Of a DNA stretch of 64,000 bases, positions 1,859-31,106 are shown piece by piece (within the stretch, counting starts at the first letter, position 1; each line of letters begins with the position of its first letter). The translations under genes and the position numbers were made by a program. The stretch lies in assembly GCA_002774875.1 (NCBI GenBank), contig PCYM01000001.1, positions 246,153-310,152 of the forward strand. The letters are read 5' to 3'. Origin of the DNA: Candidatus Uhrbacteria bacterium CG10_big_fil_rev_8_21_14_0_10_50_16 (GTDB lineage: Bacteria > Patescibacteriota > Patescibacteriia > UBA9934 > UBA11717). The notes beneath the pieces were generated by a model. That model searched no databases. It was given only the letters and a program-made list of their open reading frames with translations, and was not told the DNA's origin.

Positions 1859-4800
1859 TATGTGGGCATTTTTTGTCACACATAGACAGTTCACAACCAT
1901 CATTACGATTGCCGTGGTGTTACTTGGTTTTGTCTCGACCATCCAAATTCCAAAAGAATCCAACCCGGACATTGCAATTCCGATCGTGGTTATCTCAACT
2001 CCCTTCCCCGGTGCCAACGCCGTAGACGTTGAATCGTTTGTCACGAAACCGATTGAAGACGCAGTGCTCGGACTCGCCGATATCGATGAAGTTACTTCTT
2101 CCTCGTCTCTTGGAATGTCGTCCGTGGTGGTGAGTTTTACCATCGGCGTTGACGCGAAAGAAAAACGCGACAGTGTGCAAGAGGTTGTGGACGCGATTTC
2201 TTACAAACTTCCAACGGACGCAAACGACCCGAACATCGCACGCGTCAGTTTTGATGATCGGCCTATTAAGGTCTATGCGCTGGGCGGTCCTTATCCGTTA
2301 GAGCAACTCAACGAGTTTGCAAAGGACCTGCAAGCAGATTTAGAACGCATCCCTGGCGTCTCTAGAGCACCTATTGTTGGAGGTGCCGACCGAGAGGTGC
2401 GTGTTCTTGTAAGTCCGCAACGATTAGACCAGTTTGACCTGAGCTTGTCCCAGGTCACCATGGCCATCTCGCGCGCCAACTCTAATATTCCCGTTGGAAC
2501 CATTGAGACAGCCAACCAGGAATACAGCGTTCGTTTTGAAGGTCGACTCACGGATCCAACACAGCTCAATGCGCTTCCTATTACCTCTCGGGGTGGTGCA
2601 ATTATTACCGTAAGCGATGTGGCAACGGTTATTGACGGATACACCACGCGTAACAGTGCCTCGCAACTCAGTCTCGACGGACAACCCGCTGCACCTTCCG
2701 TAACGCTTCAGATTGTTAAATCGGATGAAGGCAACATTTTGGATATTGTAAGCGCTGCAGACATCGTCTTTGCACGTGCGCGAGAGAATGATCTCCCACG
2801 TGATGTCAACATTGAGGTGGTGGATGATGACGCCCAATTTATTAAAGATGATCTGCGCAATCTGGGAGTCAGTGGACTACAGACAAGTTTTATTGTCTTC
2901 CTGCTTATCCTTGTGTTTCTTGGATGGCGGGAGTCGATCTTGGCGAGCTTAACGATTCCCGTCACGTTCCTCATTACGTTTGCCTGTCTCCAATTCCTCG
3001 GTTACACCCTCAATTTCCTCACGCTCTTTTCCTTGATTTTGTCGCTTGGAATCCTTGTAGACGGATCCATCGTGATGACGGAAGGGTTACACGCGCACAT
3101 GCAGTCCAGTATTACACCTAAGCAAGCGGCACTAAAAACCGTTAGGGAATTTAGCGCACCGTTGATTGCCGGGACACTCACAACGGTCTTTGCTTTTGTT
3201 CCCATGCTGCTCTCCTCCGGTTTGATTGGCGAGTTCATTAAGAGCATACCGGTAACGGTCAGTATCGTGTTGTTTGCGTCCCTCTTTGTTGCGCTTGCGC
3301 TCATTCCAACATTTGGCATGCAGCTTCTGTCTGATCGTATGGCACCATCAAAGCATTTTCAGGGATTCCGACGATGGGCAGTCGCGTTTGGATACAATCG
3401 TGTACAACACTTTTTTGCCCGCGCGCAGCAACAACGCGAGCAGATGGTGAAGTATATGCAGGATTGGTACGTTGCATCCCTCTCACGTTTTATGAATCAA
3501 CCAAAGCGTCGCAAACGGCTCACGCGCCTTCTTGTCGTTGGATTTATCATAAGCATCGCACTCCCAGTGACAGGCATTTTGCAGGTGGATATGTTTCCAG
3601 CCACGGATCTTGATCGTCTCTATGTTGATGTCACCTTCCCAATTGGGACACCCTTGGAGATTACCATGGAATCCATGGACCGTATTGAGTCTGTCTTGTC
3701 AGAAGACGATCGGATAACCTCCTACCTCATGAGTTCCGGTGCCGGTTCTCCACTTCGTGGTGGGTCTGGCGGGCATGTTGGGTCAATGGTGCTAAATCTC
3801 GTGGACCGATCAAAACGTCCAGATAGTCGCGATCTCGTACAGGAGCTTGAGGGGAATCTTAAACCACTTATTCCCCTTGCCACCGTCACGGTCTCACAAC
3901 TTTCTAATGGTCCAGACTCGGCACTACCCATTGAGATTCTTCTAAAGGGACCCGAGTTGGAAACGCTCGAAGAACTTGCGCGCACGTTTGAATCAGAGCT
4001 CAAAACTATTCCCGGCGCTCGCAACGTGTCGACCAGTATCCAAGAAACCGCCGGAGAGTTTGTGTTTGAACTCGACCGCGCAGCGATTGCTCAGTATGGA
4101 CTCTCTGCGTTTGACGTTGCCTCCGAGCTCCGTACGGCAGCGTTTGGGTCCAAGGCGACCACCATCGCAACCGTTACAGATGACCTGGATGTTGTGGTTA
4201 AATATCGCTTTAACGGAAACGACGATCAAGGAACCAAAAATCGCATCACCATTGATCAACTCGCCTCCATCACCATTCAAACGCCAGGCGGAGATATTCC
4301 GTTGAGCCGCTTCTTGTCCACGCACCTCACGCAAAGTCGCGCATCCATTTCGCACACAGATGGCGATCGTGTGGTTCGTGTCACGAGTTCCACGGCCAAG
4401 GACGTCACCGCCACAAGTATCTTTAATGAGATCCGTGCGCGTATGGAGCACATTGAGATTCCAGACGGCTACACCGTGACGCTTGGTGGACAGGACGAGA
4501 GCACACAACAGTCGTTTGCCGACCTCTACAAGGCGATGATCATTGGAATCTTCTTGATTGGTGCACTCCTCGTCCTGCAGTTCAACTCGTACCGACAACC
4601 CCTGTTTATCTTGTCGAGTATTCCCCTTTCGTTAATTGGTGTTTTGCCAGGACTCAGTCTTATTGGTCAGCCATTGAGTTTCCCTGGCATGATTGGAATC
4701 GTGGCACTCGCCGGTATTGTGGTAAATAACGGTATTATCCTCGTAGACCGGATCAATGAAAATCAATACAATCACCTACAAAAAAGTGACGCCATTCGAG

Positions 4801-5058: not shown

Positions 5059-5124
5059 TTGGGGCTTTCTTGTTCCTGTAACACGTAATAAGAGAGTTCG
5101 TTTATTCACTCAGTTCGCTCTTAC

Positions 5125-5379
5125 ATGCAGAACAAGCTATTTGTTGGCGGCCTACCATGGGCCGTTGATGACGCTCAGCTCGAAGAGATCTTTGCCCCAC
5201 ACGGTGAAGTGACCTCAGCTCGCGTTGTCACAGACAAGTTCACAGGGAAGAGCCGCGGATTCGGATTCGTCGAATTTGCAACAGACGAGCAAGCGCAAGC
5301 TGCCGTCGATGCAATGGATGGATCAGAACTTGGCGGACGCACCATCAATGTGAACGTTGCTCGCCCAAAGGGAGAGTAA
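5125..5379 (+). CDS. RNA-binding protein with a single RRM domain
   Basis: 84 aa. RNP2-like LFVGGL and RNP1-like RGFGFVEF motifs are present. Confidence 0.85.
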   Translation: MQNKLFVGGLPWAVDDAQLEEIFAPHGEVTSARVVTDKFTGKSRGFGFVEFATDEQAQAAVDAMDGSELGGRTINVNVARPKGE

Positions 5380-5397
5380 TTCTCGCAAGAGATATCC

Positions 5398-5422
5398 AAA
5401 ACACCCCTCACGGGGTGTTTTG
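5398..5422 (+). terminator. rho-independent terminator after the RRM gene
   Basis: ACACCCC-TCAC-GGGGTGT hairpin followed by a T-run. Confidence 0.5.
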
Positions 5423-5433
5423 AGTTTTCAAGG

Positions 5434-5697
5434 TTATTTTGCGTCTCCTTGTAACCGGGTGAGCTTAAAATCCCACACCATCGGCTCCACGTCTACCTCG
5501 GCCTGGTACCGTGTCCCACAAACATCACAAGTCATCTCCCATATTTGATAGCCCATAGAGAGATCCACGCCTGCCATTCCCGGGAGCGCTCTTACCGTCG
5601 CGGGTATTCCCTCACTCTCTTTATCCAAAAAATCGATCGATACCCTGTCGGGGATCGTCGTACACCGCGCACATGCATTCCAAGGAGATCTGATCAT
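5434..5697 (-). CDS. small hypothetical protein with two Cys pairs (zinc-ribbon-like)
   Basis: 87 aa ORF carrying CARC and CDVC motifs. No recognisable family. Confidence 0.3.
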   Translation of the reverse strand: MIRSPWNACARCTTIPDRVSIDFLDKESEGIPATVRALPGMAGVDLSMGYQIWEMTCDVCGTRYQAEVDVEPMVWDFKLTRLQGDAK

Positions 5698-5871
5698 AAG
5701 GATATTTTTACGTGGGCCATGTATACTTTAACAGATCGATTCGTGGTCAACAGACATCCCCACGATTAGCTGCGCTATCGATATTTTTATAGGTGTGTGG
5801 CATAGAAGATTCAAGTATTTTTACGCGTGTTGATACACATCACTGGTCATGTGCGGTTGTACCTAAATAAT

Positions 5872-6435
5872 TTATTTGCTTATTGTAATAACTTTTGATC
5901 CAAACACGTACACAATCTGTGTTGATCCTAGCTGCGTGACAAGCGCATCTTCCTTTGGATACGTGTGACCGTGCAAAAGATACCCGGGCGCTTTTTGCTC
6001 AACGTATTCTCGTAATCCCTTGTATCCTGCATGAACAGAATCATCTGGTTCATCATTTACCCCAAACGGAGGAGCATGACAGAGCATAACATCTACACGT
6101 GAAAAATCACGTAGTAATTCGATCGATTCCTCCTGCGTGTACATTTTGGCAGACGTGTTTTTGTAACGTACGCATCCTTCAAATCCCCCAAACGTAACCC
6201 CATCAATCTCCAACGTTCGCAGATGCATATTCTCAATTCCCAGTTCCGTCATGTACATTCCTGAGCAATGATTGCCATAGACGCCTAGTTTTGGGATATC
6301 GGTGATCTGCTCCAGCTCGTAAATTTGTTGTTGTTCCAAATCTCCAAGTGTCACGATTACGTCGATCGCGTGTTTTAAGAGGATCGTCTTGATAGGTTGA
6401 TCCGGCGGTCTGTCCGCAATGGCGAGTATTTGCAT
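5872..6435 (-). CDS. metallophosphoesterase (calcineurin-like phosphoesterase)
   Basis: Start probably at MQILAIAD. Metal-ligand motifs TLGDL, GNHC and HAPPFG are present. Confidence 0.7.
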   Translation of the reverse strand: MQILAIADRPPDQPIKTILLKHAIDVIVTLGDLEQQQIYELEQITDIPKLGVYGNHCSGMYMTELGIENMHLRTLEIDGVTFGGFEGCVRYKNTSAKMYTQEESIELLRDFSRVDVMLCHAPPFGVNDEPDDSVHAGYKGLREYVEQKAPGYLLHGHTYPKEDALVTQLGSTQIVYVFGSKVITISK

Positions 6436-6597
6436 AGGATCTAAGTATAGCAAAATATACAACGTAAAGAGTATCTATAAAAAACCTGCACGGGCAGGCT
6501 CAACTCAAAGAGGCACTAACGATGTGGGCATCCAGGCCAGCAGCACGGGCGGCGTTTACGGATCACTAAAAAAACGTGATAAATCACGTTTTTTTGC

Positions 6598-6848: not shown

Positions 6849-7589
6849 CTACGTATACAGGCGCAAAAACCACGGCTCTAACCACAAAAATAGCACAGCA
6901 GCCATCATGAGGTATGCTCCCAGTGGAAGATGCATCTGCTTTTTAGCCCGCCCGTGCCCAATCAGCCAAAGAGCGTGCGTAGCCCCAATAACATATCCCA
7001 ATCCAATGGCAATCAACACCATCGGCCATCCAAACGCCGCGCCCAAGAGCACACCAATCCAGACATCCCCAAAACCGATCGCCCTGCCTTGGGTCACCAG
7101 ATATTGAAGCAAAAATACACCCCCACCAACAATCATCCCCATACCGGCATGATCTATTGTCAATGGCCAAGAAATTCCAAGAATCCCTATGGTCGCAATC
7201 CATGTTTCCGGGACAGCAACAAGTTGTTTCTCTGCGTCTAATCGAATCGCGTACAGCGCGTAGATCACCAAAACTGCTCCAAGCAACGCCGCTCTCAGAT
7301 CTGTAAATAGCAAACTCGCAACATAGGCGCCGCCCACAAACCCGATCAGTTCCGTCGTGAGATACCACCCAGAATAGATCTTCTTGCAACAGGCAGTCCT
7401 CCCGCGAGACAATACGTAACTCACGATAGGAATCAACACATACCACGGCAACACCTCTGCACAAACATCACAGATAGAACGTCCAGTTGTCCAAGAATGC
7501 CCCGTTCCTCGCCGCATAACGGCGCACGAGATAGCACTTGCAAGTGCTGCACCCACAACACCTCCAACCAATAGAATAAACCATGTCAT
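6849..7589 (-). CDS. type IV prepilin peptidase (A24 family)
   Basis: Polytopic membrane protein with the N-terminal CxxC...GRxxCC zinc-binding pattern (CDVCAEVL...SRGRTACC) typical of PilD-like enzymes. The start may be at 7646. Confidence 0.65.
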   Translation of the reverse strand: MTWFILLVGGVVGAALASAISCAVMRRGTGHSWTTGRSICDVCAEVLPWYVLIPIVSYVLSRGRTACCKKIYSGWYLTTELIGFVGGAYVASLLFTDLRAALLGAVLVIYALYAIRLDAEKQLVAVPETWIATIGILGISWPLTIDHAGMGMIVGGGVFLLQYLVTQGRAIGFGDVWIGVLLGAAFGWPMVLIAIGLGYVIGATHALWLIGHGRAKKQMHLPLGAYLMMAAVLFLWLEPWFLRLYT

Positions 7590-18163: not shown

Positions 18164-18208
18164 TGGAGCCACGATCGGGAATCGAACCCGAGACCTCATC
18201 CTTACCAT
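18164..18208 (-). repeat. attR-like partial tRNA-Thr(GGU) copy (tRNA positions 32-76, intron-less)
   Basis: 45 nt identical, apart from one T-loop base, to the 3' part of the tRNA gene at 26306-26345, and extending through an uninterrupted ATGGTAA anticodon loop. Confidence 0.7.
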
Positions 18209-18413: not shown

Positions 18414-18911
18414 TTACAAATTATATTTATGTAAAAATGAATCGGTTATTTCTTCCCCAAGCGTTATTCCCAGTATGGTCTTTGTATCATCTGGAGTATC
18501 TGTAGATCTTCGTGCTCGTACTTTAAGCTGGTCTAATTCTCTCATTCCATTTTCTGGTAAACGTGCCATTTTTGCAAAACTTTCGCGGCCACCTCGTCGC
18601 TTTTTCTGTATATCTTCGACACTTAAAATTTCGACACGCTTTACATCTATATACGTTGTCGTTTTCGGAAAATGTCGTGTCTGTACATCACACCATTCTT
18701 TTGGTTCAACAATTTTCGTCGTCCACCTTTTGCAGGAGCTTCCCCGTGAGGTAAGTACAATAAACGGGAAGATAGCTAACTCATCAGCTATCACCGTATT
18801 GGCTAGTTTGTATTTTACCTTCACATCACCCGTGCTTTCTTCCCTTGAGAACTCATCACGATATACCCAGCCACGCTCAACAATATTGGCCATGAGTATG
18901 GAGAGTTGCAT
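18414..18911 (-). CDS. hypothetical protein downstream of the Panacea-domain gene (candidate toxin partner)
   Basis: 165 aa ORF starting 5 nt after the upstream gene. No recognisable family. Confidence 0.35.
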   Translation of the reverse strand: MQLSILMANIVERGWVYRDEFSREESTGDVKVKYKLANTVIADELAIFPFIVLTSRGSSCKRWTTKIVEPKEWCDVQTRHFPKTTTYIDVKRVEILSVEDIQKKRRGGRESFAKMARLPENGMRELDQLKVRARRSTDTPDDTKTILGITLGEEITDSFLHKYNL

Positions 18912-18916
18912 GCTAT

Positions 18917-19393
18917 CTACGCTTCAAGATTAAGAACCTCGTTGATGTGTTCATTACCACCAAGAGTTGCACCCAAAGCTTGCATAGGTGCAGTCTTGTA
19001 CGCAATGTCTGTTAGAGCCTTTGCACCGTAACCCTTTAGTGACTCCATGATTTCGTTGAACATAGCTTCCTGGACTTCCGTAATAGAAAAATCGGTATCA
19101 GTAGGTTCTTCGTTAAAATTATATACAATGTATTCCTTCCCGTCAGAAGTATATTCCGTCGTCGCAATGGCGACACCGTCGTCTATCAAAGCCTTCAAAT
19201 CATGATATATCGCTTCGTCAAATGGACCATAGGTATAGCGTCGATACACATAGCCAAAATAAACATCCTGTTCTTTTTTTCTAGCAATGAGATCCAGAAG
19301 GTACGCTAACTTCATCAAAACCGTTACCGTGGGTCGCTCGTGTCTTTGAATTAGTTGAGCGATTAATTTTTGGCGGTTTGATAATTCTGGCAT
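18917..19393 (-). CDS. Panacea/SocA-like (DUF4065) antitoxin-type protein
   Basis: LMKLAYLLDL...YTYGPFDEAIYHDL resembles the Panacea domain core. Called from memory of the family, not from a search. Confidence 0.45.
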   Translation of the reverse strand: MPELSNRQKLIAQLIQRHERPTVTVLMKLAYLLDLIARKKEQDVYFGYVYRRYTYGPFDEAIYHDLKALIDDGVAIATTEYTSDGKEYIVYNFNEEPTDTDFSITEVQEAMFNEIMESLKGYGAKALTDIAYKTAPMQALGATLGGNEHINEVLNLEA

Positions 19394-19447: not shown

Positions 19448-20407
19448 TCACCCAACATACTTCCCATTCCCAAGCTTCTCCACGCTATCACGTAGGGCCT
19501 CTGTAGTGACCTGACGGCCGTATTTTAGCGTCATACGCGGGTCTACGTGTCCCATGAGTTGTTGTACGTGAGAAAGCGAAACACCTTGTGCGTAGAGGTT
19601 CGCAGCGTACGTGTGCCTACAGCGGTGCACAAAGAAATTCACTCCGCTCTTTTGTTTGATCAGGTCGGCCAAGTGTTTTAACCCATGCTTACCAAGCGGA
19701 CGGTTTCTTTTTGAAGACACAAACAGTGCATTCGTCGTGTACGCAATAGGATGATCCTCTCTTGCTCGTAGATACCGCTGAAGCTCGACCATAAGTTCCC
19801 TCTGCAAGGGAATAGTCCGTGTCAATTTGGATTTAGACGTCTTGCCTTCCACAGTAAGTGTCCGTTGTTCCATATTTACGCTCTCCAATGTAAATCCGAG
19901 AAGTTCATTACGTCGTATACCCGTTAGAATGAGTAGTTTTAGTATAGTGTAATTTCTACAGCGAAGAAATTCCGTTGCCCACTCATAATCGTACTGACAA
20001 AACTGCAACAATTTATGTATCTCTGTTTCTGTAAGGTAACGTCTATCCACATACTCTACATGCGGTTTGCTGATTGTTGGCAAGGGATTCTCCTTAATTT
20101 GTCGTGTGTCTACCAACCATCGCATGAACTTCCCCCACTTACTCCTGTATGTTAGAAGCGTGGAGTTTTTTACACCCTTATGTTGTTTTCCGTTGTTGAG
20201 GGTTCGTGTTCGCGTTTGGAGCGTCTCAAAAAGTCCGATCCAAAAACTACGTTCTTGCACAGATTTTAAATCAGCATCAGGAGCGAGCTTAAAAAGTAAC
20301 GAGAGAGCGGCACGATACCCCTCTAACGTATCTGGGCGAGCACCTGCTGTATATTGTTGTTCGCGCAAAAAATCGTCGAACAAGACCTGTAATTCATTCT
20401 GTTGCAT
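19448..20407 (-). CDS. tyrosine-type site-specific recombinase/integrase
   Basis: C-terminal HRCRHTYA...GH...Y catalytic motifs, 319 aa. Confidence 0.85.
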   Translation of the reverse strand: MQQNELQVLFDDFLREQQYTAGARPDTLEGYRAALSLLFKLAPDADLKSVQERSFWIGLFETLQTRTRTLNNGKQHKGVKNSTLLTYRSKWGKFMRWLVDTRQIKENPLPTISKPHVEYVDRRYLTETEIHKLLQFCQYDYEWATEFLRCRNYTILKLLILTGIRRNELLGFTLESVNMEQRTLTVEGKTSKSKLTRTIPLQRELMVELQRYLRAREDHPIAYTTNALFVSSKRNRPLGKHGLKHLADLIKQKSGVNFFVHRCRHTYAANLYAQGVSLSHVQQLMGHVDPRMTLKYGRQVTTEALRDSVEKLGNGKYVG

Positions 20408-21746: not shown

Positions 21747-22280
21747 TCAATTCCTTTCTGTAATCGTGGGCTCTGACAAAACCTCCCAATTGCTCACCAT
21801 CATGGGCGAGCCTCCTTTGTATCGCAAGTCAACCGTATAGTACAAACGCCCTTCTGTACCTAAGGCATTTGATGCGATGACGTATCCACTCATCTGATAC
21901 GTATCGCCCCCTGTACTAACCAATCTAGCCTCTGTACAGCTTGGCTTACGTGCTTCGTCTGGGTATTTTGTATAACCTTCAATAACAGCCCCTGCTACAA
22001 ACGCGTGAATATCACAAGCTGTTGGCTCACGATCCACTGACGTGGTCGTGCTGCTGCTCGCCGTGCTCTCTCCCGAGTAATCTCCGGGTTCGCTCACCGC
22101 AACAGCAACAATCATAATAAAGAACAAAATACCAAAGAAGACGAAAGTGCCTTTCATGTTAAATCCGCCTTTCTTGACCGTTGTCTGGCTAGGTGTGCCG
22201 ATGTCTGATTTGCAATGCTTGCAGTAAATAGCTTCTGCAATAATTTCTTCCGCGCACAGTGGGCATTTCTTTTTCGTCAT
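21747..22280 (-). CDS. zinc-ribbon membrane protein
   Basis: N-terminal CPLCAEE...CKHC ribbon, one TM helix, extracytoplasmic Ser/Thr-rich domain. Confidence 0.4.
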   Translation of the reverse strand: MTKKKCPLCAEEIIAEAIYCKHCKSDIGTPSQTTVKKGGFNMKGTFVFFGILFFIMIVAVAVSEPGDYSGESTASSSTTTSVDREPTACDIHAFVAGAVIEGYTKYPDEARKPSCTEARLVSTGGDTYQMSGYVIASNALGTEGRLYYTVDLRYKGGSPMMVSNWEVLSEPTITERN

Positions 22281-22680: not shown

Positions 22681-22886
22681 AATATTGCGGTTTTATGGGG
22701 CGGTATACTAAAAGCCCGCCACCAGCGATACCCCCGAGGGGATACCTGCCACCCTTTCGGATGACAACCGCAATAGTGCTCTGATGACGAGCTCAGAATA
22801 CTATTGCGGATTTGATGCCATGCCCTGGAAACCAAGGTTTAGGCTAAATTGTAGTAGTATTGTATTAAATACCCATTAATAAATCA

Positions 22887-23532: not shown

Positions 23533-23554
23533 AACTTATAATGCGTTATAAGTC
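23533..23554. repeat. 22-bp recombinase-type site (9-bp inverted arms around a 4-bp core), left copy
   Basis: AACTTATAA-TGCG-TTATAAGTC. A 21-nt exact match, in inverted orientation, to 25353-25373. Confidence 0.65.
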
Positions 23555-23718
23555 TACGTGCTTGACCGTTTCTACCCCCCCTACCAGGGGTAGACGTTTT
23601 CGACGTTTATTCGATCGACCTATGCCGAATAAATACTAAGATTAGAGATAAATAAAAATCGTACTTTATCTACTTTGCGTGGTTTTTCTGTGGATAACCT
23701 TCCGATTCTTTCGGAAGA

Positions 23719-24705
23719 CTACGATACCAATGCTCTTCTTAGATTTTTAAAGTGAATAGTCTCACTTTGGTCCTTCGGGAACATCTCCAACAAGGTGTAC
23801 GGATAATATCCAGCAAGCCCACTGATAATAGTCGCGCCATATTTCACATCTTCTTCAACACGTTTTTTCCAATCTTTGGGCTGTGTCGAACTAATGACAT
23901 AGATACGTAATCCATGGTTTATTACACCGTCTGCAAGAACGGCGTTTATGTGTTCATCCCCGAAACCATAGCCTATAATAAGCATTTTTTTACTGTCTTC
24001 TTGAACAGCTGAGGAAAATAGATCGAAATACGCTTTTAGTAAAGGTTCAGATGTAATCGTGTGTACTTTATTCTTCCCAATAACCATCCTTGTGGACCCG
24101 TCAGAAGCAACCCAACCATAGGAACCATGAAGCTTAATATAAACTGGTCCAGCATGACCTCTGATGGCGGTTTCGACAAGATTGTTAACTTTATCTTCCG
24201 TTGGTAATACTAAGAAATCAGACTCCTCCAATGATGTCGTGCTCAGCCCGCCCTTTTGTGCATGAAATCCAGGCACCCCTGGGCATACACTTCCGCTCCT
24301 GCGTTCCATGAACAGGTCTTGATTCAGTGTGAAGAATACGCTAATTTTTTCTCTGCCACTATTGAATAAGCTGAGTAATCTATTTAATGTATACCAACAT
24401 ACAGGATGTGCTGAATCGTCTCGGAAAACCCAGTCCTTAGTGGCTATGTCTAGATTCTTATAAGCCTCTCTAACGGCACTCTGTATTCTCTCTTTATCCT
24501 CACAAGATACGGACTTGTCATCATTCACACGGCTGTACACGGATTCGTAGTCAAAGTCATCACACAGTAAACTCCTTAATTTCTCTGATGATTGAACATC
24601 TGGGTGATTGTATATTTGAGACCACATCTCTGAAGCCAAAAAACCACCAAAGTTTTTAGTAAACCCCGCCCCAGTCAGCAATATTAGGTTATGGTAATTA
24701 GACAT
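23719..24705 (-). CDS. SIR2-like domain protein (SIR2_2/defence-type, standalone)
   Basis: LLTGAGFTKNFGG Rossmann start, FTLNQD (the TTNYD-like motif), IKLHGS, IGYGFGDEHI. 328 aa. Overlaps the upstream gene by 8 nt. Confidence 0.65.
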   Translation of the reverse strand: MSNYHNLILLTGAGFTKNFGGFLASEMWSQIYNHPDVQSSEKLRSLLCDDFDYESVYSRVNDDKSVSCEDKERIQSAVREAYKNLDIATKDWVFRDDSAHPVCWYTLNRLLSLFNSGREKISVFFTLNQDLFMERRSGSVCPGVPGFHAQKGGLSTTSLEESDFLVLPTEDKVNNLVETAIRGHAGPVYIKLHGSYGWVASDGSTRMVIGKNKVHTITSEPLLKAYFDLFSSAVQEDSKKMLIIGYGFGDEHINAVLADGVINHGLRIYVISSTQPKDWKKRVEEDVKYGATIISGLAGYYPYTLLEMFPKDQSETIHFKNLRRALVS

Positions 24706-25384
24706 CTTTACCTTCCTCCTCTGGGGATGTCTCTTCTAGCCCCTTAGTCACCATGGACGGCAGAACGAACAGAAACTCTGCAAGAGCTTGAGCAAAGTTG
24801 ACAGTCAACTTTGCATCTTGGTAGCTAGGCATCATTGCATCATCGTCAGCATGTCGTTCTTCATTGGCCTCTAATCGTACTTGATGCGCCCAAGTGGACA
24901 TATCTTGGGTTATAAGATGCTTACCTGCCGCCTCATCTATTCGGCTGTATAATGAACCGTCTACGTAACCTTTTTCTTTCAACATCGCATCAACCGAACT
25001 TGCGGCAAGCATGATAGCACCAGAAGGCGCATGGAGACATTCTAATGCCTGCAAGAGGTAGGCCCTAGGCTTCTCTGGTATCACTTCATCTACACTCATG
25101 ACATTTGGATAGATTTCCAAAACAGCGCCCCCGGGATGTCTACTTGAACACACAACCACACCACCACAACGCTTGCAAACATACAGACCCCAATAACGTC
25201 GATTGTCACCTTTGTGATCGGCTGAGCCAACCCCATGCTCCAGTACCAAACTTGGGGTGTCTGTGGTGCAATGTGGACATCGATCCAGTTCAAGATTTTG
25301 GGATAAATTTGGCATACAATAGAAATTTGTGTAGATATTACCACATTTCTCGGACTTATAACGCATTATAAGTCGAGCTATCAT
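24698..25384 (-). CDS. zinc-ribbon + DUF4145-like (HEPN-related) protein
   Basis: N-terminal CPHC...CKRC ribbon. C-terminal helical domain with LKEKG...LYSRIDEA...AHQVRLEANEERH, resembling the DUF4145 R..(G/A)N...H signature. The start codon lies inside the 22-bp site. Confidence 0.5.
   Translation of the reverse strand: MIARLIMRYKSEKCGNIYTNFYCMPNLSQNLELDRCPHCTTDTPSLVLEHGVGSADHKGDNRRYWGLYVCKRCGGVVVCSSRHPGGAVLEIYPNVMSVDEVIPEKPRAYLLQALECLHAPSGAIMLAASSVDAMLKEKGYVDGSLYSRIDEAAGKHLITQDMSTWAHQVRLEANEERHADDDAMMPSYQDAKLTVNFAQALAEFLFVLPSMVTKGLEETSPEEEGKDV
25353..25374. repeat. 22-bp recombinase-type site, right copy (inverted)
   Basis: GACTTATAA-CGCA-TTATAAGTC. It encodes the last codons plus stop of the integrase and the first codons (MRYKS) of the DUF4145-like gene. 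Confidence 0.65.
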
Positions 25385-26273
25385 CCAATGGATGTTTGTT
25401 AATCTGTGTGCGCAGGTGTTCTGCTGAAGCGGCGAGGTAAATGCTTGTCGTTTTTAGGTCGGCATGACCTAGCATTTTTGAGAGAGAGTAAATGTCACAT
25501 CCGCCCTCTAGCATCATCGTAGCGAAGCTGTGACGTAGCTTGTGCACGCTGAATTTTATTCCTGACGCTTCCTTCATCTTCTCAACCAACCTCTTCATAC
25601 CTGTCCCCGTGAATCCAACGTTACGGTTAAGGGAGGCAAAGAACTCTGGGCAGGTTTTGTGTAGCCGTTTACGTTCTACAAGATAACGATCTAGACTCTC
25701 CTGTAATGCTGAGCAAATCGGCACTACGCGATCCTTTGACCCTTTGCCCTGTCGAATAAAGATAGAGCGGTTCTCTACATCTATATCGTTGTACTGCAGG
25801 TTAAGCAATTCCTGTTTTCGCAGTCCTGCATATAAGAATGTAGCAAAAATCGCATGATTGCGATACTTAAGGTACTTGTAAGGATAAGGGAAGTTCATAG
25901 CCGTTTCCAATATCCGCATCGCCTCTTGTTTGGTGAGCTTAGGAGGCAAACGCCGTTCAAGTTTTGGCATCTCCATTCCATCCGCAGGGTTCTCTTGCAT
26001 ATACCCCTGTTCCACACACCACCTGAAAAAGACGACAAAGCTCTTGTGGTACGTGATGAAGCTGTTAGCCGACCATTTGCGCGTTGTCCTACCATAGAGC
26101 ATGTAGCGCTCAAAACAAGGCTTAGTGACCTGCTGAAGCGTTTCTATGCCTTCTGTACGTATAAAGAATCCCACGGCGTTCTTATATCGCTGAATAGTCG
26201 TTGGTCTGTACCCACGAATAAACGAAGAGTGGTCACAAAATTGTCGCAACGCTGTTTGTATGTACATAAACAA
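25356..26273 (-). CDS. tyrosine-type integrase adjacent to the tRNA-Thr attachment site
   Basis: HKLRHSFAT...GH...Y catalytic box, 305 aa. A terminator hairpin separates it from the tRNA 3' end. Confidence 0.85.
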   Translation of the reverse strand: MFMYIQTALRQFCDHSSFIRGYRPTTIQRYKNAVGFFIRTEGIETLQQVTKPCFERYMLYGRTTRKWSANSFITYHKSFVVFFRWCVEQGYMQENPADGMEMPKLERRLPPKLTKQEAMRILETAMNFPYPYKYLKYRNHAIFATFLYAGLRKQELLNLQYNDIDVENRSIFIRQGKGSKDRVVPICSALQESLDRYLVERKRLHKTCPEFFASLNRNVGFTGTGMKRLVEKMKEASGIKFSVHKLRHSFATMMLEGGCDIYSLSKMLGHADLKTTSIYLAASAEHLRTQINKHPLDDSSTYNAL

Positions 26274-26305
26274 AAAATCCTGATGGTGAACATCAGAACC
26301 TTTCG

Positions 26306-26589
26306 TGGAGCCACGATCGGGATTCGAACCCGAGACCTCATCCTTCGCTTACACCCTAATTTATTTCGTCACGTATATAGGGACTAGACTGTATATTAGG
26401 CATATTCCCTAAGGAACTTAGCCCCCCTTGTCAGTCGTTCGGGCGTTTCTTCGATTGACGCCACGGTCTTACCCTTGTGACAGGGCTTTAACCGTTATTC
26501 GGGATTCACTCTACCGTTTCCAGTGGGGTGGGCTACTTTCTCGTATGAAAGTGACCATGGATGCGCTCTACCGACTGAGCTATCGCGGC
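26306..26589 (-). tRNA. tRNA-Thr (anticodon GGU) interrupted by a ~208-nt intron between positions 36 and 37
   Basis: Exon 1 at 26589-26554 (GCCGCGATAGCTCAGTCGGTAGAGCGCATCCATGGT). Exon 2 at 26345-26306 (AAGGATGAGGTCTCGGGTTCGAATCCCGATCGTGGCTCCA). Joined they give a canonical 76-nt cloverleaf with a G4-U69 wobble. The intron-less version of the same 3' part is present at 18164-18208. Confidence 0.6.
26346..26553 (-). ncRNA. putative group I-type self-splicing intron in the tRNA-Thr anticodon loop
   Basis: The 5' exon ends in U and the intron ends in G. A UAUACAGUCUAGUCC segment resembles the group I S/P7 region. No ORF inside. Confidence 0.35.
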
Positions 26590-26751
26590 TTAATTGTTTT
26601 CTTGGTATATGGTGAAAGCACCATCATTGTAATACAGAGGTGTCCCCTTCGGGGACTACTTTAGTAAAGGAAGTGGTATCTATCTCTCACACAACAGCCG
26701 AAACGGCTGTAGTCTTAGGGATAATACTCTTCTTAACTATAGACCTCTTTA

Positions 26752-26789
26752 TTACCATGGATGCGCTCTACCGACTGAGCTATCGCGGC
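26752..26789 (-). repeat. second copy of tRNA-Thr(GGU) positions 1-38 (pseudo-tRNA 5' fragment)
   Basis: A 36-nt exact repeat of exon 1 plus AA. It is followed by degenerate tRNA-like sequence and a 164-nt hairpin-rich spacer. Confidence 0.55.
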
Positions 26790-26800
26790 ACGAGCCTCGC

Positions 26801-27589
26801 CTACAACGGCAGACTATAAATGCGATCCTGGAACTCCTCGATCTTATTATTCTCAGGATTCACCTGTTTGAGCAATTTCAACCCTTTTTGAGCGCGTTTG
26901 CGATCGCCGGCAAGTATACTCGCATCGATCAGAAAATCAAGGTACTTGGGGTTATTGGAACGTAAATCCACCGCCGCCTCAAAATACTCCACAGCTTTTT
27001 GCGTCTCGCTCGCCCGCATAGCCAACTCTCCAAGCGACGTCAAAATACTCGCATCCTCCGGCGCCAACGCCGACGCATACTCAAATGTCTGCCGTGCTTG
27101 GTCAAACTGTTTCATATCCACATACACTTTCCCCAACAACTCATACACTTCCGCATTCTTGGCATCCAAACTCAACAACTCAATCAATCGCTGCTCAGCC
27201 GCCGCGTAGGATTCCTTCTCAATCAACTCCTCCGCCTCTTCTTTAAGGTGATTGCGCATCTCCAACGTTCCCGCCACATCGCCAGACGACTCCTTTTGCA
27301 ATCGCTTGTAATGACGCTCCATGGCCTGTGCGTGGTGATACAATTTTTTGATCAACCCTTTCCCCTCACGCGTAACACTCGACGCTGCCTTTCCAGCCTT
27401 CTGCGCACGCTCACCGCCAATGCGCTCCAACCGTTGCACAAACAACGCACGCTTTTTGCGACGTTTCTCGCGTTCCGGGTCCGAGGACACATCCAACACA
27501 ATCAACTTGCTGTAATAACGCACCACAAACCAAACAATAACGGCTAAAGACACAACCAGCAACAGTAACGGTAATAACCACCAAAGCAT
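26801..27589 (-). CDS. membrane-anchored TPR-repeat protein
   Basis: N-terminal TM segment. TPR-like helical repeats in the C-terminal half. Confidence 0.55.
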   Translation of the reverse strand: MLWWLLPLLLLVVSLAVIVWFVVRYYSKLIVLDVSSDPEREKRRKKRALFVQRLERIGGERAQKAGKAASSVTREGKGLIKKLYHHAQAMERHYKRLQKESSGDVAGTLEMRNHLKEEAEELIEKESYAAAEQRLIELLSLDAKNAEVYELLGKVYVDMKQFDQARQTFEYASALAPEDASILTSLGELAMRASETQKAVEYFEAAVDLRSNNPKYLDFLIDASILAGDRKRAQKGLKLLKQVNPENNKIEEFQDRIYSLPL

Positions 27590-27591
27590 AT

Positions 27592-28338
27592 TTACGATAA
27601 TTCGGAGGCGAGTTGAATCAACTCAATCAACGATTTAATACGAACGCCTGCACCTCCTACAAGCGCGCCATCCACTGACGAGTGATTTAAGAACTCGTAC
27701 GCGTTTTCCGGTGTCACACTTCCCCCATAAAGCACCAAAACGTCCGGAATGTCAAGTTGCGCAAGCTGTTCCTTGATCTGTGTGTGCACCACGGAAACGT
27801 CTTGAATGGAGGGAACTTTACCGCTGCCAATGGCCCATAACGGCTCATACGCCACATAGATGGTATGCCGTTTTGTTGGATGAATCCCCATAAAAATCGT
27901 GCTAATTTGATCGTGGATGTACCCTGCGGTCTCTCCCGCCTCACGCGTGGCCATCGGCTCTCCCACCGCCACGATTACGTCCAATCCATGTTGCAGGGCC
28001 AACGCCACCTTCTCGCGCACGTCCGCGTCCGTCTCGCCTTGCCGTCGGCATTCCGAATGTCCCAAAATCACCGCCTGCGCTCCCACTTCCTTAAGAACCC
28101 GTACGGATACACTCCCTGTATAGGCACCAACCTCCTCCGTATGCATGTTCTGCGCGGCCATTTGCACACGGGACCGCCCTAGGACTTTGGACACCTCAAA
28201 CAACGCCGGGAACGTTGGCGCCACAAGAATATTTGGAATATCTTGCATGCCCCGAAGCCCACGCAAAACACCCCGTGCAAGAGCCACGGACTCACGCACG
28301 CCTAGTTCCATTTTCCAATTGGCAATGATGGTTTTCAT
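27592..28338 (-). CDS. tpiA: triose-phosphate isomerase
   Basis: IIANWKM start and TIM-barrel motifs, 248 aa. Confidence 0.9.
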   Translation of the reverse strand: MKTIIANWKMELGVRESVALARGVLRGLRGMQDIPNILVAPTFPALFEVSKVLGRSRVQMAAQNMHTEEVGAYTGSVSVRVLKEVGAQAVILGHSECRRQGETDADVREKVALALQHGLDVIVAVGEPMATREAGETAGYIHDQISTIFMGIHPTKRHTIYVAYEPLWAIGSGKVPSIQDVSVVHTQIKEQLAQLDIPDVLVLYGGSVTPENAYEFLNHSSVDGALVGGAGVRIKSLIELIQLASELS

Positions 28339-28388
28339 AAGGATGAGTTACGGGTTTGCAAACTACGTCTTGGGTGAGATCTCGCGGA

Positions 28389-29660
28389 TTATCGAGGAGG
28401 AAGTGTTGCACGGATTACATCTGGGTCTGTCTCGGGTCCAATGTAGGACATGGTCATCTTAGAGCGATCAAACAGCTCTTTTGCGAGCGTCTGCACGTCT
28501 TGCTTAGTGATTTTCTGCAACGCGGCAATACGGTCCTCAGGTGATGGAACCACCTCTTGAAATAACGCTTGCTTGGCATACCACTCGGCACGCTCGGACG
28601 AATCCTCAATACCCAACAATATTCGTCCACGCAGAAAAGCTTTGGTACGGTCCATTTCCTCGTCCGTCGGTCCATTGGTCACAAGATCGTTGATCTCTTC
28701 AAAAATGCGATCCATGGCCTCCGACAGCCGTGTCTTGTCCAACCCTGCCAAAATAGATGTGATACCGGCATCCTCGTACGCACTGTGGTAACAGTTGATT
28801 CTATACGCTAATCCCCCTTTTTCTCGCACATTCATAAACAAACGAGAACTCATATTGCCACCCAACATCGTACTCAACAAGCGCATGGTGTCCCCTCGCT
28901 CATCATTGTGTGACAACCCCGGAAATCCGAGTCCAATGTGCACTTGCTCGGTGGCCTTTTGCTGCATCTCGATCGGCGGAACATCTTGGGACGCAAACCC
29001 ATTAAACGCACCGTACCCGTCCGACGCTAATAAGCTCTCAACTGTTCCAAACGTCGCATTAAGCCACGTCTCAACCTCCGGTGTTACGTTTCCTGCAACG
29101 GCGATCGTCATGCGATCTGGTGTGTAATGTTGATCTCTAAATGCCATCACAGCCTTACGATCCATGGCACGCATGGTAGCAGGCGTCCCGGCAATGTCTC
29201 GTTCCAAAGAGTTACCTCTAAACATCACACGCTCCAACAACTCGTCGATGTGACGTGTAGGGCTATCCTCATACATGTTGATCTCCTCAATAATCACGCG
29301 TCGCTCGCGGTCCATCTCCTCCTCGTTGTAGAGCGAATCAAAGTTCATGTCATATAACGTTTGAATGGCGAACTGCGCATGCGTGGAATCCGACTTAATA
29401 TAGTACCCCGTATATTCCTTACTCGTGTAGGCATTAAACTCGGCCCCAATGGCGTCCAACGCGCGCGACACATGCGCGGGAGTGGGCAGTGCTGTAGAGC
29501 CCTTAAACATCATGTGCTCAATAAAATGTGAGGCACCACTTAACTCCGGTGTCTCATAGCGAGATCCAACCTTTGCCATCACCAAAACTGTCGTGGCTTG
29601 GGTGCCTTCAACCGGTACAAGAAAGGCGCGCATGCCGTTGGTCAATTCAATTTGTTTCAT
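28389..29660 (-). CDS. M16-family zinc metallopeptidase (insulinase-like)
   Basis: Inverted zinc-binding motif HFIEHMMFKG near the N-terminus, about 420 aa. Confidence 0.75.
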   Translation of the reverse strand: MKQIELTNGMRAFLVPVEGTQATTVLVMAKVGSRYETPELSGASHFIEHMMFKGSTALPTPAHVSRALDAIGAEFNAYTSKEYTGYYIKSDSTHAQFAIQTLYDMNFDSLYNEEEMDRERRVIIEEINMYEDSPTRHIDELLERVMFRGNSLERDIAGTPATMRAMDRKAVMAFRDQHYTPDRMTIAVAGNVTPEVETWLNATFGTVESLLASDGYGAFNGFASQDVPPIEMQQKATEQVHIGLGFPGLSHNDERGDTMRLLSTMLGGNMSSRLFMNVREKGGLAYRINCYHSAYEDAGITSILAGLDKTRLSEAMDRIFEEINDLVTNGPTDEEMDRTKAFLRGRILLGIEDSSERAEWYAKQALFQEVVPSPEDRIAALQKITKQDVQTLAKELFDRSKMTMSYIGPETDPDVIRATLPPR

Positions 29661-29705
29661 AGATTCACGTCGGGAATAAAGATCAATCGCTACCAATACA
29701 GGCGA

Positions 29706-31106
29706 CTACGCCGCAAGACGCTGCGCCAGGTACGCCGTAAGCTCTACAATCGGCACACGCGTTTGTTGCATGGTATCGCGATCACGCACGGTCACAGCCT
29801 TGTCTTCCAATGTCTCAAAGTCCACCGTTACACAAAACGGTGTTCCAATCTCGTCCTGCCGGCGATAGCGTTTTCCAATGGATCCCGAGGCGTCAAACTC
29901 CACGCGTGCCATTGGAAGGAGTTGATCGACCAATTTCTGTGCCGGCTCAATAAGTTGGTCTTTCTTAGAAAGCGGCAGGACTGCTACCTGATAAGGCGCT
30001 AACGCAGGCACAAATTTCATCACAACACGTGTATCTGTTCCGCCTTTAGAATCAGGGACCTCCTCTTCCGTATAGGCGCTTGTAAGCAACGCAAGTAGCG
30101 TTCGGTCCACGCCAAGTGACGGTTCGATCACATGCGGAACCACTTTCTTTGACTGTTCGTCTGGATCGGTATATTCCAATTTTTGTTTGGAGTGATTTTG
30201 ATGATTGGTCAAATCAAAATCTGTTCGATACGCGAGACCCCAAAGTTCTTTTGTGCCAAATGGAAAGTCAAACTCAAAATCCACCGTACGCTTGGAATAA
30301 TGCGCCAACGCGTCCTTTGCAACTTCCAATCGATGTACGTGTGCTATGTCGATTCCAATTTGTTTGCCCCAGTTTTCTATGGTGTCTGCCCATGTCTCAA
30401 ACTGTGCCTGCCAATCCTGCTCTTCCAAAAAATACTCAATCTCCATTTGCTCAAACTCAAGCGTTCTAAATGTAAAGTTTCCCGGCGTAATCTCATTCCT
30501 AAATGCTTTTCCGATTTGCGCAATCCCAAATGGCAATCGTATGCGTGTTGTATCTAACACGTTTTTAAAGTTCACGAAAATAGCTTGCGCTGTTTCTGGC
30601 CGAAGGTAAATCACTTGATCCCCTTCTCCGGCCGCACCTGCGGTGGTTTCAAACATCCCGCTAAACTGTCGCGGCGGCGTCAGCGCATTTCCATCTGGGC
30701 TCTTGAGGCTCTTCGCCTCGATAATCGCCGCAAGTTCCTCAAGCGACTTTCCATCGACATTCTCTCCTGTCATCTCCTGGATCAAATGATCGGCTCGAAA
30801 CCGTTTATGGGTTATTTTATCTTCTACTAACGGGTCATTAAACGTCTCTACGTGACCCGACGCCTCCCACACACGCGGATTCATCAAAATCGAACTATCG
30901 ATTCCCACAATATCTTGTCGGCGTTCCACAAATGTTTTCCACCAACTATCCTTAATATTTTTCTTAAGCTGAGACCCCAATGGACCATAATCCCAGGTAT
31001 TGGCAAGCCCCCCGTAAATCTCCGAACCAGGAAACACAAACCCGCGCCGCTTGCACAGCGACACGATTTTATTCATGAGATCCTCGGGTTGTTCTTGTTT
31101 GGGCAT
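29706..31106 (-). CDS. glyQS: glycine--tRNA ligase (dimeric class II type)
   Basis: N-terminal MNKIVSLCKRRGFVFPGSEIYGG signature, class II motifs, and a C-terminal anticodon-binding domain. Confidence 0.85.
   Translation of the reverse strand: MPKQEQPEDLMNKIVSLCKRRGFVFPGSEIYGGLANTWDYGPLGSQLKKNIKDSWWKTFVERRQDIVGIDSSILMNPRVWEASGHVETFNDPLVEDKITHKRFRADHLIQEMTGENVDGKSLEELAAIIEAKSLKSPDGNALTPPRQFSGMFETTAGAAGEGDQVIYLRPETAQAIFVNFKNVLDTTRIRLPFGIAQIGKAFRNEITPGNFTFRTLEFEQMEIEYFLEEQDWQAQFETWADTIENWGKQIGIDIAHVHRLEVAKDALAHYSKRTVDFEFDFPFGTKELWGLAYRTDFDLTNHQNHSKQKLEYTDPDEQSKKVVPHVIEPSLGVDRTLLALLTSAYTEEEVPDSKGGTDTRVVMKFVPALAPYQVAVLPLSKKDQLIEPAQKLVDQLLPMARVEFDASGSIGKRYRRQDEIGTPFCVTVDFETLEDKAVTVRDRDTMQQTRVPIVELTAYLAQRLAA

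Follow-up and report, generated by a model that had tools for sequence, protein, structure and literature searches.

Two copies of a 21-bp sequence lie inverted to each other on either side of two predicted defence genes in a 64,000-nt stretch of the genome of Candidatus Uhrbacteria bacterium CG10_big_fil_rev_8_21_14_0_10_50_16 (contig PCYM01000001.1, positions 246,153 to 310,152; called the window here and numbered from its first letter), and one of the copies overlaps the end of a tyrosine recombinase gene, int1. The question raised by this locus is what role the repeats have, an earlier note on the sequence having described them as the ends of a recombinase-driven inversion switch. In our reading, the repeats are probably the two boundaries of one cassette (23555-25352) in a site-bounded array beside a dedicated Xer-like recombinase, carried by a tRNA-Thr island. 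They sit in an island of about 8 kb with low G+C content, which is integrated at tRNA-Thr(GGU) and covers about 18.2-26.3 kb of the window, in a genome of the candidate phyla radiation (CPR). We found no description of site-bounded defence-cassette arrays in CPR bacteria in the literature searched.

Gene families were assigned with Pfam, defence models with PADLOC, equivalog models with NCBIfam, RNAs with Rfam, and tRNAs with ARAGORN and Rfam. The features on which the argument turns are the following.

25353-25374: site 1, the putative recombinase-proximal cassette boundary, a perfect 22-bp palindrome GACTTATAA-CGCA-TTATAAGTC (plus strand) that overlaps the int1 stop codon
23533-23554: site 2, the putative distal cassette boundary, AACTTATAA-TGCG-TTATAAGTC, an inverted 21/21 match to site 1, located 14 nt past the stop codon of the AbiU2-type gene
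25356-26273, minus strand: int1, Xer-like tyrosine recombinase of 303-305 amino acids (aa), with Pfam Phage_integrase (1.1e-32) and a SAM-like N-terminal domain
24698-25315, minus strand: cassette gene 1, a Cys4 zinc ribbon with DUF4145 (a divergent HEPN RNase); likely start ATG at 25315, with longer open reading frames (ORFs) reaching 25366 and 25384
23719-24705, minus strand: cassette gene 2, SIR2_2 family, putative NADase effector (Pfam SIR2_2, 1.7e-07; PADLOC SIR2 models, up to 1.7e-11), with an 8-nt overlap with gene 1
23571-23594: G+C-rich terminator-like hairpin TCTACCCC-N8-GGGGTAGA within the cassette, between site 2 and the SIR2 stop codon
22887-23519, plus strand: AbiU2-type HEPN gene (Pfam HEPN_AbiU2, 2.4e-11), convergent with the cassette, between site 2 and the LOOT RNA

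The repeats are dyad sites tied to the int1 gene

The sequence ACTTATAATGCGTTATAAGTC (23534-23554, plus strand) is the exact reverse complement of 25353-25373, with 21 of 21 positions matching and 1798 nt separating the arms. With up to three mismatches, the window holds these two copies of the repeat and no more, the island scanned with up to five mismatches yields no additional decayed copy, and 100 dinucleotide-preserving shuffles of the window gave no match. The perfect inverted repeat, 1.8 kb apart, was thus confirmed in position and is non-random. The dyad form described for each copy, with 9-bp arms around a 4-nt core, was also borne out, the right copy being a perfect 22-bp palindrome and the left copy having arms that match at eight of nine positions (A replaces G at 23533). 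Both sites are asymmetric only at the two positions flanking an invariant central GC (TGCG vs CGCA on the plus strand), so that they are identical when aligned as inverted copies, while a direct alignment leaves two mismatches. The non-palindromic centre is 4 nt long, with 8-6-8 and 7-8-7 divisions equally possible.

The int1 ORF ends with STYNAL-TAA inside the right copy, and TY[NK]AL, the translation of the site, is the C-terminus common to the close homologues. The catalytic residues R, K, H-x-x-R, H, and Y are intact in int1 and invariant across the close homologues. To judge from the sequence, int1 is likely to be the enzyme acting on the sites.

Related loci (numbered with the prefix L below) carry comparable sites. 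We aligned 22 sites from 11 loci encoding int1 relatives; all share the pattern arm-NGCN-complementary arm with an invariant central GC, have lengths of 20-24 bp, and are perfect or near-perfect palindromes. The arms vary between loci and match within a locus, the variants being ACTTATAA, ACATATAA, ACCGATAA, ACCTATA-, ACTTAAAA, and ACCTAAAA. Dyad symmetry is held in 93.6% of the cells of the alignment, with changes on both sides at 8 of 10 arm pairs, a level reached by none of 500 shuffles. A dyad site starts at or within 40 nt of the int1 stop codon in L009, L024, L025, L026, L029, L030, L031, L032, and L052, and second or third sites bound cassettes in L009, L024, L025, L026, L030, L049, and L052. 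The suggestion that the repeats are recombinase-associated dyad sites and not a chance duplication is therefore supported, since relatives whose recombinases are 66-85% identical keep a site at the 3' end of that gene and the palindrome is preserved by compensatory changes.

The enclosed DNA differs from lineage to lineage, the genes being as follows.

Window: zinc ribbon-DUF4145 and SIR2
L009: 207-aa protein
L024: OLD-family nuclease
L025: HTH/CapP-like pair and two small genes
L026: SIR2 and a type II restriction-modification system
L052: MOSC; then a 199-aa gene and ThsB-TIR
L049: SIR2; then two reverse-strand genes; then a 353-aa gene

With three sites each, L052 and L049 are true arrays. 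In L052, three identical 22-bp palindromes separate the MOSC gene from the 199-aa gene and ThsB-TIR, and in L049 three related sites punctuate the SIR2 gene, the two reverse-strand genes, and the 353-aa gene. The cargo is rich in defence genes, including the OLD-family nuclease, the ThsB TIR protein (2e-68), the CapP-like protease, the type II restriction-modification system, SIR2, and an HNH gene described below. The orientation of the paired sites is inverted in the window and direct in L009; the cores are fully symmetric in L030, L052, and L026 (AGCT, TGCA) and mixed in L024 and L025.

Homology stops at the sites and a co-occurring strain carries another gene

The DNA of L024 and L029 is about 80% identical from upstream of int1 through the first cassette, and the similarity stops at L024 position 3417, inside its site 2 (3400-3419). 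The DNA homology between L052 and L030 ends at site 1. The closest comparison is provided by L061 (ENA ERZ27293362), which is 100% identical to window positions 26589-25353 over 1237 nt, covering the tRNA 5' half, int1, and the whole right site. Past 25353 the two sequences are unrelated, L061 having an HNH_5 endonuclease gene (4e-10) where the window has the DUF4145 gene, and this junction differs from the predicted inverted junction. The recombinase and the site of the window are thus joined to a different cassette in a co-occurring strain, and the full identity through the site followed by the HNH gene points to a replacement of the cassette within the population. The earlier note had named a mobile-element boundary running through the sites as a finding that would speak against a switch, and L061 departs from the window precisely there, at the right copy's inner edge. 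The 58-aa HNH fragment of L061 had no match when used as a protein query, and none of the contigs bearing the AbiU2 gene has an alternative neighbour.

A model of cassette exchange beside int1

The proposed model would have an island backbone composed of the tRNA, int1, site-cassette-site units, the LOOT RNA, a zinc-ribbon protein gene, and a second recombinase gene, int2. The first site would abut or overlap the int1 stop codon, and every cassette would close with another copy of the site. The cassettes, mostly anti-phage genes, would differ between genomes and even between co-occurring strains, and in the window the terminator-like hairpin at 23571-23594 would travel along with the cassette. 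A recombinase dimer, most likely of int1, would bind the two inverted arms, and exchange around the invariant central GC would insert, remove, or replace cassettes, as in integron arrays or Acinetobacter pdif modules. Identical crossover regions would presumably be required, as for other tyrosine recombinases. Under such an identity rule, the site pair of the window would give inversion and no excision, the pair in L009 would give excision, and symmetric sites could give either.

Several observations weigh against this model. Among the assemblies, no recombination product was seen directly, that is, no circle, no inverted form, and no empty site (the int1 end and one site followed by TTGGTGCCCAGC). 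Homologous recombination in the flanking backbone could in principle be the source of the cassette replacement, and the dyad covariation fits any dimeric DNA-binding protein or a hairpin equally well. The known crossover regions of tyrosine recombinases are 6-8 bp long, longer than the 4-nt centre found here, and with the longer divisions equally possible the limits of arm and spacer are not fixed by the sequence. The evidence from L061 comes from a single short contig of 1.4 kb that does not cover the far end. The first site is decayed in L027 and in L010/L029 and there is none at the int1 end in L049, suggesting that the site is not always maintained among relatives. Finally, the sample consists of 11 loci, several of them from related lineages.

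We also considered whether the asymmetric cores have a hybrid origin, in which TGCG and CGCA result from recombination between two symmetric sites, TGCA in the backbone and CGCG in a cassette. Both symmetric types exist in relatives. The idea was set aside as no test, because any combination of cores could be explained in this way, and it needs a crossover inside the central GC, which is atypical for tyrosine recombinases.

Taken further, the model describes an integron-like gene-capture platform of CPR bacteria (Uhrbacteria-like) on a tRNA-Thr island, in which an Xer-like recombinase, by means of a dyad site of about 22 bp that begins at the stop codon of its own gene, would insert, exchange, and perhaps flip defence cassettes, with the LOOT RNA as a fixed part and the bases beside the GC deciding between excision and inversion, so that the window cassette could be flipped and not excised. 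We put this fuller picture forward only tentatively, as it is somewhat less likely to be right than wrong.

Does the segment invert?

The alternative that survives best is the one proposed by the earlier note, a working inversion switch in which int1 flips the 1.8-kb segment at appreciable frequency, moving DUF4145-SIR2 between the int1 and AbiU2 transcription units and making the defence phase variable. The sites themselves invite this idea, being identical at 21 of 21 positions when inverted and different at two when direct, and an intact tyrosine recombinase gene ends in one of them. Either orientation would place the genes behind a co-directional gene, with the internal terminator-like hairpin moving too, and there is a precedent in the Acinetobacter plasmid pXerC/D pairs, in which sites of opposite orientation with identical spacers have been shown experimentally to invert a resistance module reversibly (PMC9947245). 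If identical crossover regions are needed, then a local recombinase acting on this pair of sites would be expected to yield inversion rather than excision, since the sites match when inverted and differ at two positions when direct, and such an inversion is possible.

The public assemblies give no sign of it. Eleven public contigs carry the identical SIR2 or AbiU2 protein, and all eight that were displayed (L001-L008) agree with the reference in arrangement and have identical sites. Both sites are covered by six of these contigs, each from a different sample; all six have the orientation of the reference, and not one ends or breaks at a site. The predicted inverted junctions are CACCAAACTTATAATGCGTTATAAGTCCGAGAAATG and GGTCAAGCACGTAGACTTATAACGCATTATAAGTCGAGCTATC; the junction CACCAAACTTATAATGCGTTATAAGTCCGAGAAA was searched for in the JGI metagenome contigs and in a set of one genome per GTDB species and gave no exact match, assemblies showing the majority form only. 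The uniform orientation and the absent junction argue against a frequently flipping, unbiased switch; a minority orientation is compatible with both.

The relatives point in the same direction. The earlier note had suggested looking for the sites at homologous loci, and there the dyad sites are kept at the int1 3' end, but the inverted pair is not, the relatives having direct pairs, symmetric sites, mixed pairs, and three-site arrays. The SIR2 homologues in L026 and L049 are oriented relative to int1 as in the window. A promoter scan found 5 sites against 8.5 expected and no promoter that would distinguish the two orientations.

The argument from the start codon is also weak. An in-frame ATG lies inside the right repeat (25366-25364, MRYKS...) and is used by one gene caller, and the earlier note had concluded that inversion would leave the start codon and the first five residues unchanged. 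This ATG is probably not the start of the gene. The DUF4145 homologues (55-60% identical, about 200 aa) align from the invariant M24 of the 228-aa ORF, with 8 of 10 aligned rows beginning there, and NCBI annotates the gene as 205 aa starting at M24. The most likely start on this alignment and annotation is the ATG at 25315-25313, which lies 51 nt beyond the repeat ATG and 38 nt inside the inner edge of the repeat. That the left copy also reads MRYKS is a necessary consequence of the inverted repeat.

We therefore regard an active switch as rather unlikely. Invertibility is a property of the site pair and not evidence for a designed or active switch, and a perfect inverted repeat beside a recombinase gene need not be one, as the same sites are direct, symmetric, or arrayed in relatives. 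This layout among the relatives suggests that the general design is one of cassette boundaries and not of a two-state switch.

Operators, dif sites and transposon ends

The palindromes might act without any recombination, as operators of a dimeric regulator or as RNA or DNA hairpins in processing or termination, the mosaic boundaries coinciding with them since they are intergenic. The dyad covariation is equally expected for an operator or a hairpin, and the sites do fold as hairpins (-7.9 to -15.2 kcal/mol; z of -3.8 to -7.1). In addition, the same 16 arm bases are found upstream of promoter-like sequence in one phage contig (L044, L047). However, the sites are not followed by a T-run, a G+C-rich hairpin resembling a terminator is present separately beside site 2, and site 2 is upstream of no gene. 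The homology, both among relatives and between L061 and the window, stops to the base at the site edge, across lineages the first site stays with the recombinase gene's 3' end, and there are just two copies in 64 kb. The phage matches are about the number expected by chance for an 18-base pattern, and the viral collection holds no int1 relative. This explanation is unlikely in our view, somewhat more so than an inversion switch.

The phage contig is an observation in its own right. It is 86 kb long (IMGVR_UViG_3300037067_007581) and has two copies of ACTTATAA-NGCA-TTATAAGT (L044 9252-9271, L047 3471-3490), each followed by TTATCCACA and a TTGACA-like hexamer, which resembles a repeated operator-promoter unit. 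Five matches to the site pattern were obtained in viral contigs (L044-L048), two of them in this one contig, and they were judged to be coincidental or operator-like; nothing in the viral contigs links the phage copies to int1.

A further alternative is that the site at the int1 end is the chromosomal dif and int1 the housekeeping Xer recombinase, with the cassette being an element of the type of the integrative mobile elements exploiting Xer (IMEX) inserted at dif. The best NCBIfam scores of int1 are indeed to XerA (180 bits, cut-off 220), XerC (172, cut-off 335), and XerD (167, cut-off 330), and among solved structures int1 also scores best against XerA and XerD. It is very conserved, the top 120 homologues all being at least 60% identical, and the inner arms of the site, ATAA...TTAT, resemble those typical of dif sites. 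Against this, every Xer model stays under its cut-off, and the GC skew is negative with a monotonic cumulative fall across the 64-kb window and no switch at 25 kb, most genes to either side sharing one strand. The island around the locus has tRNA repeats at its ends, int1 homologues are found beside different tRNA genes and in mobile elements, including those of Bacteroidota, and int1 is 74% identical where the neighbouring housekeeping genes are 45-57% identical. On the monotonic skew, the Xer scores below cut-off, and the tRNA-island context, we rejected a chromosomal dif as very improbable.

Last, a decayed or non-autonomous transposon carrying both genes would account for a perfect 21-bp inverted repeat around 1.8 kb of cargo with no transposase encoded, but the repeats can scarcely be its terminal inverted repeats, as there is no target-site duplication at the pair, each end is itself palindromic, the site also forms direct pairs and three-copy arrays in relatives, many lineages have one copy fixed at the end of the recombinase gene, and the window has no further copies.

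The cassette genes

The gene calls of the earlier note for HEPN, SIR2, DUF4145, and the tyrosine recombinase are supported by Pfam, and the segment does carry defence genes. The DUF4145 match of cassette gene 1 scores 28.8 bits against a cut-off of 23.1 (ORF 24698-25384, minus strand), and the residues C36, C39, C70, C73, R170, and H178 are invariant in the alignment of homologues. PADLOC assigned no family to this protein at E up to 0.01. RAZR (PD-T7-4), a single-gene defence system, is described as likewise combining an N-terminal Cys4 zinc ribbon with a C-terminal DUF4145 HEPN-like domain (PMC13017515), and when compared with this description cassette gene 1 also has R and H eight residues apart. 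Unlike RAZR, it overlaps a SIR2 gene.

Compared with known SIR2 effectors (ThsA, DSR, SIR2-HerA, and SPARSA), cassette gene 2 has the SIR2_2 domain, but scores 36.6 bits for NF042942, where the cut-off is 500. The island provides no SLOG, HerA, or Argonaute partner for it. In L026 and L049 the first cassette gene is a SIR2 homologue (58-60% identical) that comes without a DUF4145 gene, and DUF4145-type homologues stand alone in other genomes. As each type occurs without the other, a functional DUF4145-SIR2 two-gene system is not established by the comparison; of the two-gene module that the earlier note had described, the genes and their 8-nt overlap are there.

The 207-aa protein in the L009 cassette (6927-7550) has no family match and is 53% identical to the product of the gene right after SIR2 in L026 (2564-3172), which hints that this family may be a SIR2 partner able to travel alone.

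The tRNA-Thr island and its backbone

The limits and the remaining backbone of the island are given by the following features.

26306-26589, minus strand: tRNA-Thr(GGU), the proximal attachment site next to int1 (5' half 26554-26589, 3' half 26306-26345)
18164-18208, minus strand: distal attachment repeat at the far island end, ATGGTAA and the tRNA-Thr 3' half, 44/45 identical to the 26306-26345 copy, followed by a terminator-like hairpin
19448-20407, minus strand: int2, second tyrosine recombinase, 25% identical to int1
22727-22845, minus strand: LOOT RNA (Rfam RF03000), 69.1 bits against a gathering score of 46.4
21747-22280, minus strand: p177, zinc-ribbon protein, a backbone gene downstream of LOOT with homologues in L026 and L030 and a candidate membrane-spanning hydrophobic stretch (by eye)

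The direct repeat of the tRNA anticodon loop and 3' half at the far end and the low G+C content (0.40-0.46 over 17-27 kb, about 0.50 outside) identify a tRNA-integrated island. In many lineages the int1 homologue comes immediately after a tRNA gene (Thr, Phe, or Val), for example in L009, L012-L015, L019, and L020. In relatives, an intact tRNA-Thr(GGT) is found immediately upstream of int1. In the window, an insert of about 208 nt (26346-26553) splits tRNA-Thr(GGU) exactly in the anticodon loop, and ARAGORN and Rfam make no call for the interrupted gene. A group I intron was considered for the insert and rejected, as it has no Rfam match even at E up to 1. The 36-nt 5' half is duplicated 200 nt upstream (26754-26789). 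In L009, an upstream piece resembling the 5' half is followed by a spacer and then by an intact tRNA-Thr.

The gene order ProRS-M16-TIM-TPR-tRNA-int1 is shared between the window and L010, L027, and L029. Over this region (window 25356-31106), int1 is 74% identical where the neighbouring housekeeping proteins are 37-57% identical, with 45% for TIM, 48% for the M16 peptidase, and 54-57% for ProRS. A recombinase that outconserves the genes next to it points to horizontal spread of the int1 island to the same tRNA target, or else to an unusual constraint. Vertical inheritance of int1 is not supported, int1 being more conserved than the flanking core genes.

The homologues of int2 accompany those of int1 in most related loci. 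The LOOT RNA is also found in L024 (6564-6690), L026 (7558-7684), L029 (7142-7257), L030 (3302-3415), L049 (12178-12306), and L051 (5506-5633). In L026, L030, and L049 it starts 39-68 nt past the last site and is followed by the zinc-ribbon protein gene; in the window, the AbiU2 gene intervenes. On these positions, the orphan LOOT RNA appears to be a conserved backbone element of the island family.

Relation to known systems

The Acinetobacter pdif modules appear to be the nearest functional analogue. In both cases, short Xer-type dyad sites bound discrete accessory modules, which form arrays and mosaics. Beyond the reversible inversion cited above, other pdif pairs fuse or resolve replicons (PMC9947245). 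The sites described here are near-symmetric, which suggests that one recombinase binds both arms, whereas pdif has distinct XerC and XerD arms, and their centre is NGCN, where the pdif spacer has 6 bp. The array is chromosomal, lies in a tRNA island, and starts from the stop codon of its own dedicated recombinase, its cargo consists of anti-phage genes, and its host is a CPR bacterium. Recombination has been demonstrated for pdif, whereas here sequences were compared. With dif-module systems in general, the locus shares discrete site-bounded modules of mosaic distribution, but by the equivalog cut-offs int1 belongs to none of XerC, XerD, XerA, XerS, and XerH.

There is also a resemblance to integrons, in that a tyrosine recombinase gene with an adjoining primary site precedes one or more cassettes that are mostly co-oriented and are each closed by a palindromic site, and the content of the array beside the recombinase gene varies between close relatives (L052, L049, the window, and L061). 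However, int1 is not an IntI, scoring 110.9 bits for the integron-integrase model TIGR02249 (cut-off 265) and 81.4 for NF011946 (cut-off 435). The sites are 20-24-bp palindromes, in contrast to the imperfect attC sites of 57-141 bp, and the recombinase gene is co-directional with the cassettes, while that of integrons is divergent. The cassettes may also hold several genes and their own terminator, and the platform lies on a tRNA island with a second recombinase.

Defence genes are a frequent cargo of programmed inversions (PMC9881135, PMC7672463), and an inverted pair of short sites beside a tyrosine recombinase gene is likewise seen in invertons, shufflons, Type I hsdS switches, and the Mycoplasma Xer1/vpma system. 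Those systems show both orientations and swap promoters or coding segments, whereas here there is a single observed orientation, the segment contains whole genes together with their start, and the inverted layout is not conserved among relatives. An inverted site pair, then, need not be designed for inversion. As in other tRNA-integrated defence islands, there is an integrase beside the tRNA, a repeat of the tRNA 3' half at the far end, a lower G+C content, and a cargo of defence and toxin-antitoxin genes; the internal site-bounded array, the LOOT RNA, and the paired recombinases set this island apart from the standard ones.

Site-bounded cassettes beside a tyrosine recombinase are thus already known in kind, and if our reading is correct, the novelty would lie in a different recombinase, a simpler site, and a mobile tRNA-island carrier. 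If the sites are cassette boundaries, bacteria of the CPR with their small genomes would exchange anti-phage genes as cassettes at a dedicated recombinase platform, which would help to explain the turnover of defence genes in these bacteria. The orphan LOOT RNA would gain a context and a testable role, and the compact 22-bp site together with a recombinase of about 300 aa would be a suitable pair for direct testing. The interest of the locus lies mainly in this platform and not in the proposed switch.

Further observations

Just inside the distal end of the island (18414-19393), a SocA/Panacea-domain antitoxin-like gene (18917-19393, minus strand) is adjacent to a 165-aa gene with no family match, and the two are probably a toxin-antitoxin pair. 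In L024, a diversity-generating retroelement (bAvd and reverse transcriptase, 5117-6515) lies between the last site and the LOOT RNA.

The int1/int2 recombinase pair is conserved across CPR lineages and Bacteroidota (L017, L018, L034-L040, and L050). In distant lineages the two genes are adjacent, either convergent or in tandem, and in the subgroup of the window the cassette array lies between them. L050 has three recombinase genes and a Replic_Relax gene, and the int1 homologues of Bacteroidota are found in a mobile element with a serine recombinase. In distant relatives that have no palindrome, a DnaA-box-like sequence, TGTGGATAA, directly follows the int1 stop codon (L036, about 3575-3590; L037; and L038, about 3505-3520).

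Residues 79-296 of int1 are also matched (E = 2.7e-23) by PDB 9i5v_14, a 401-aa chain named ribosome-associated translation inhibitor RaiA, which points to a recombinase-like domain in a ribosome-associated protein.

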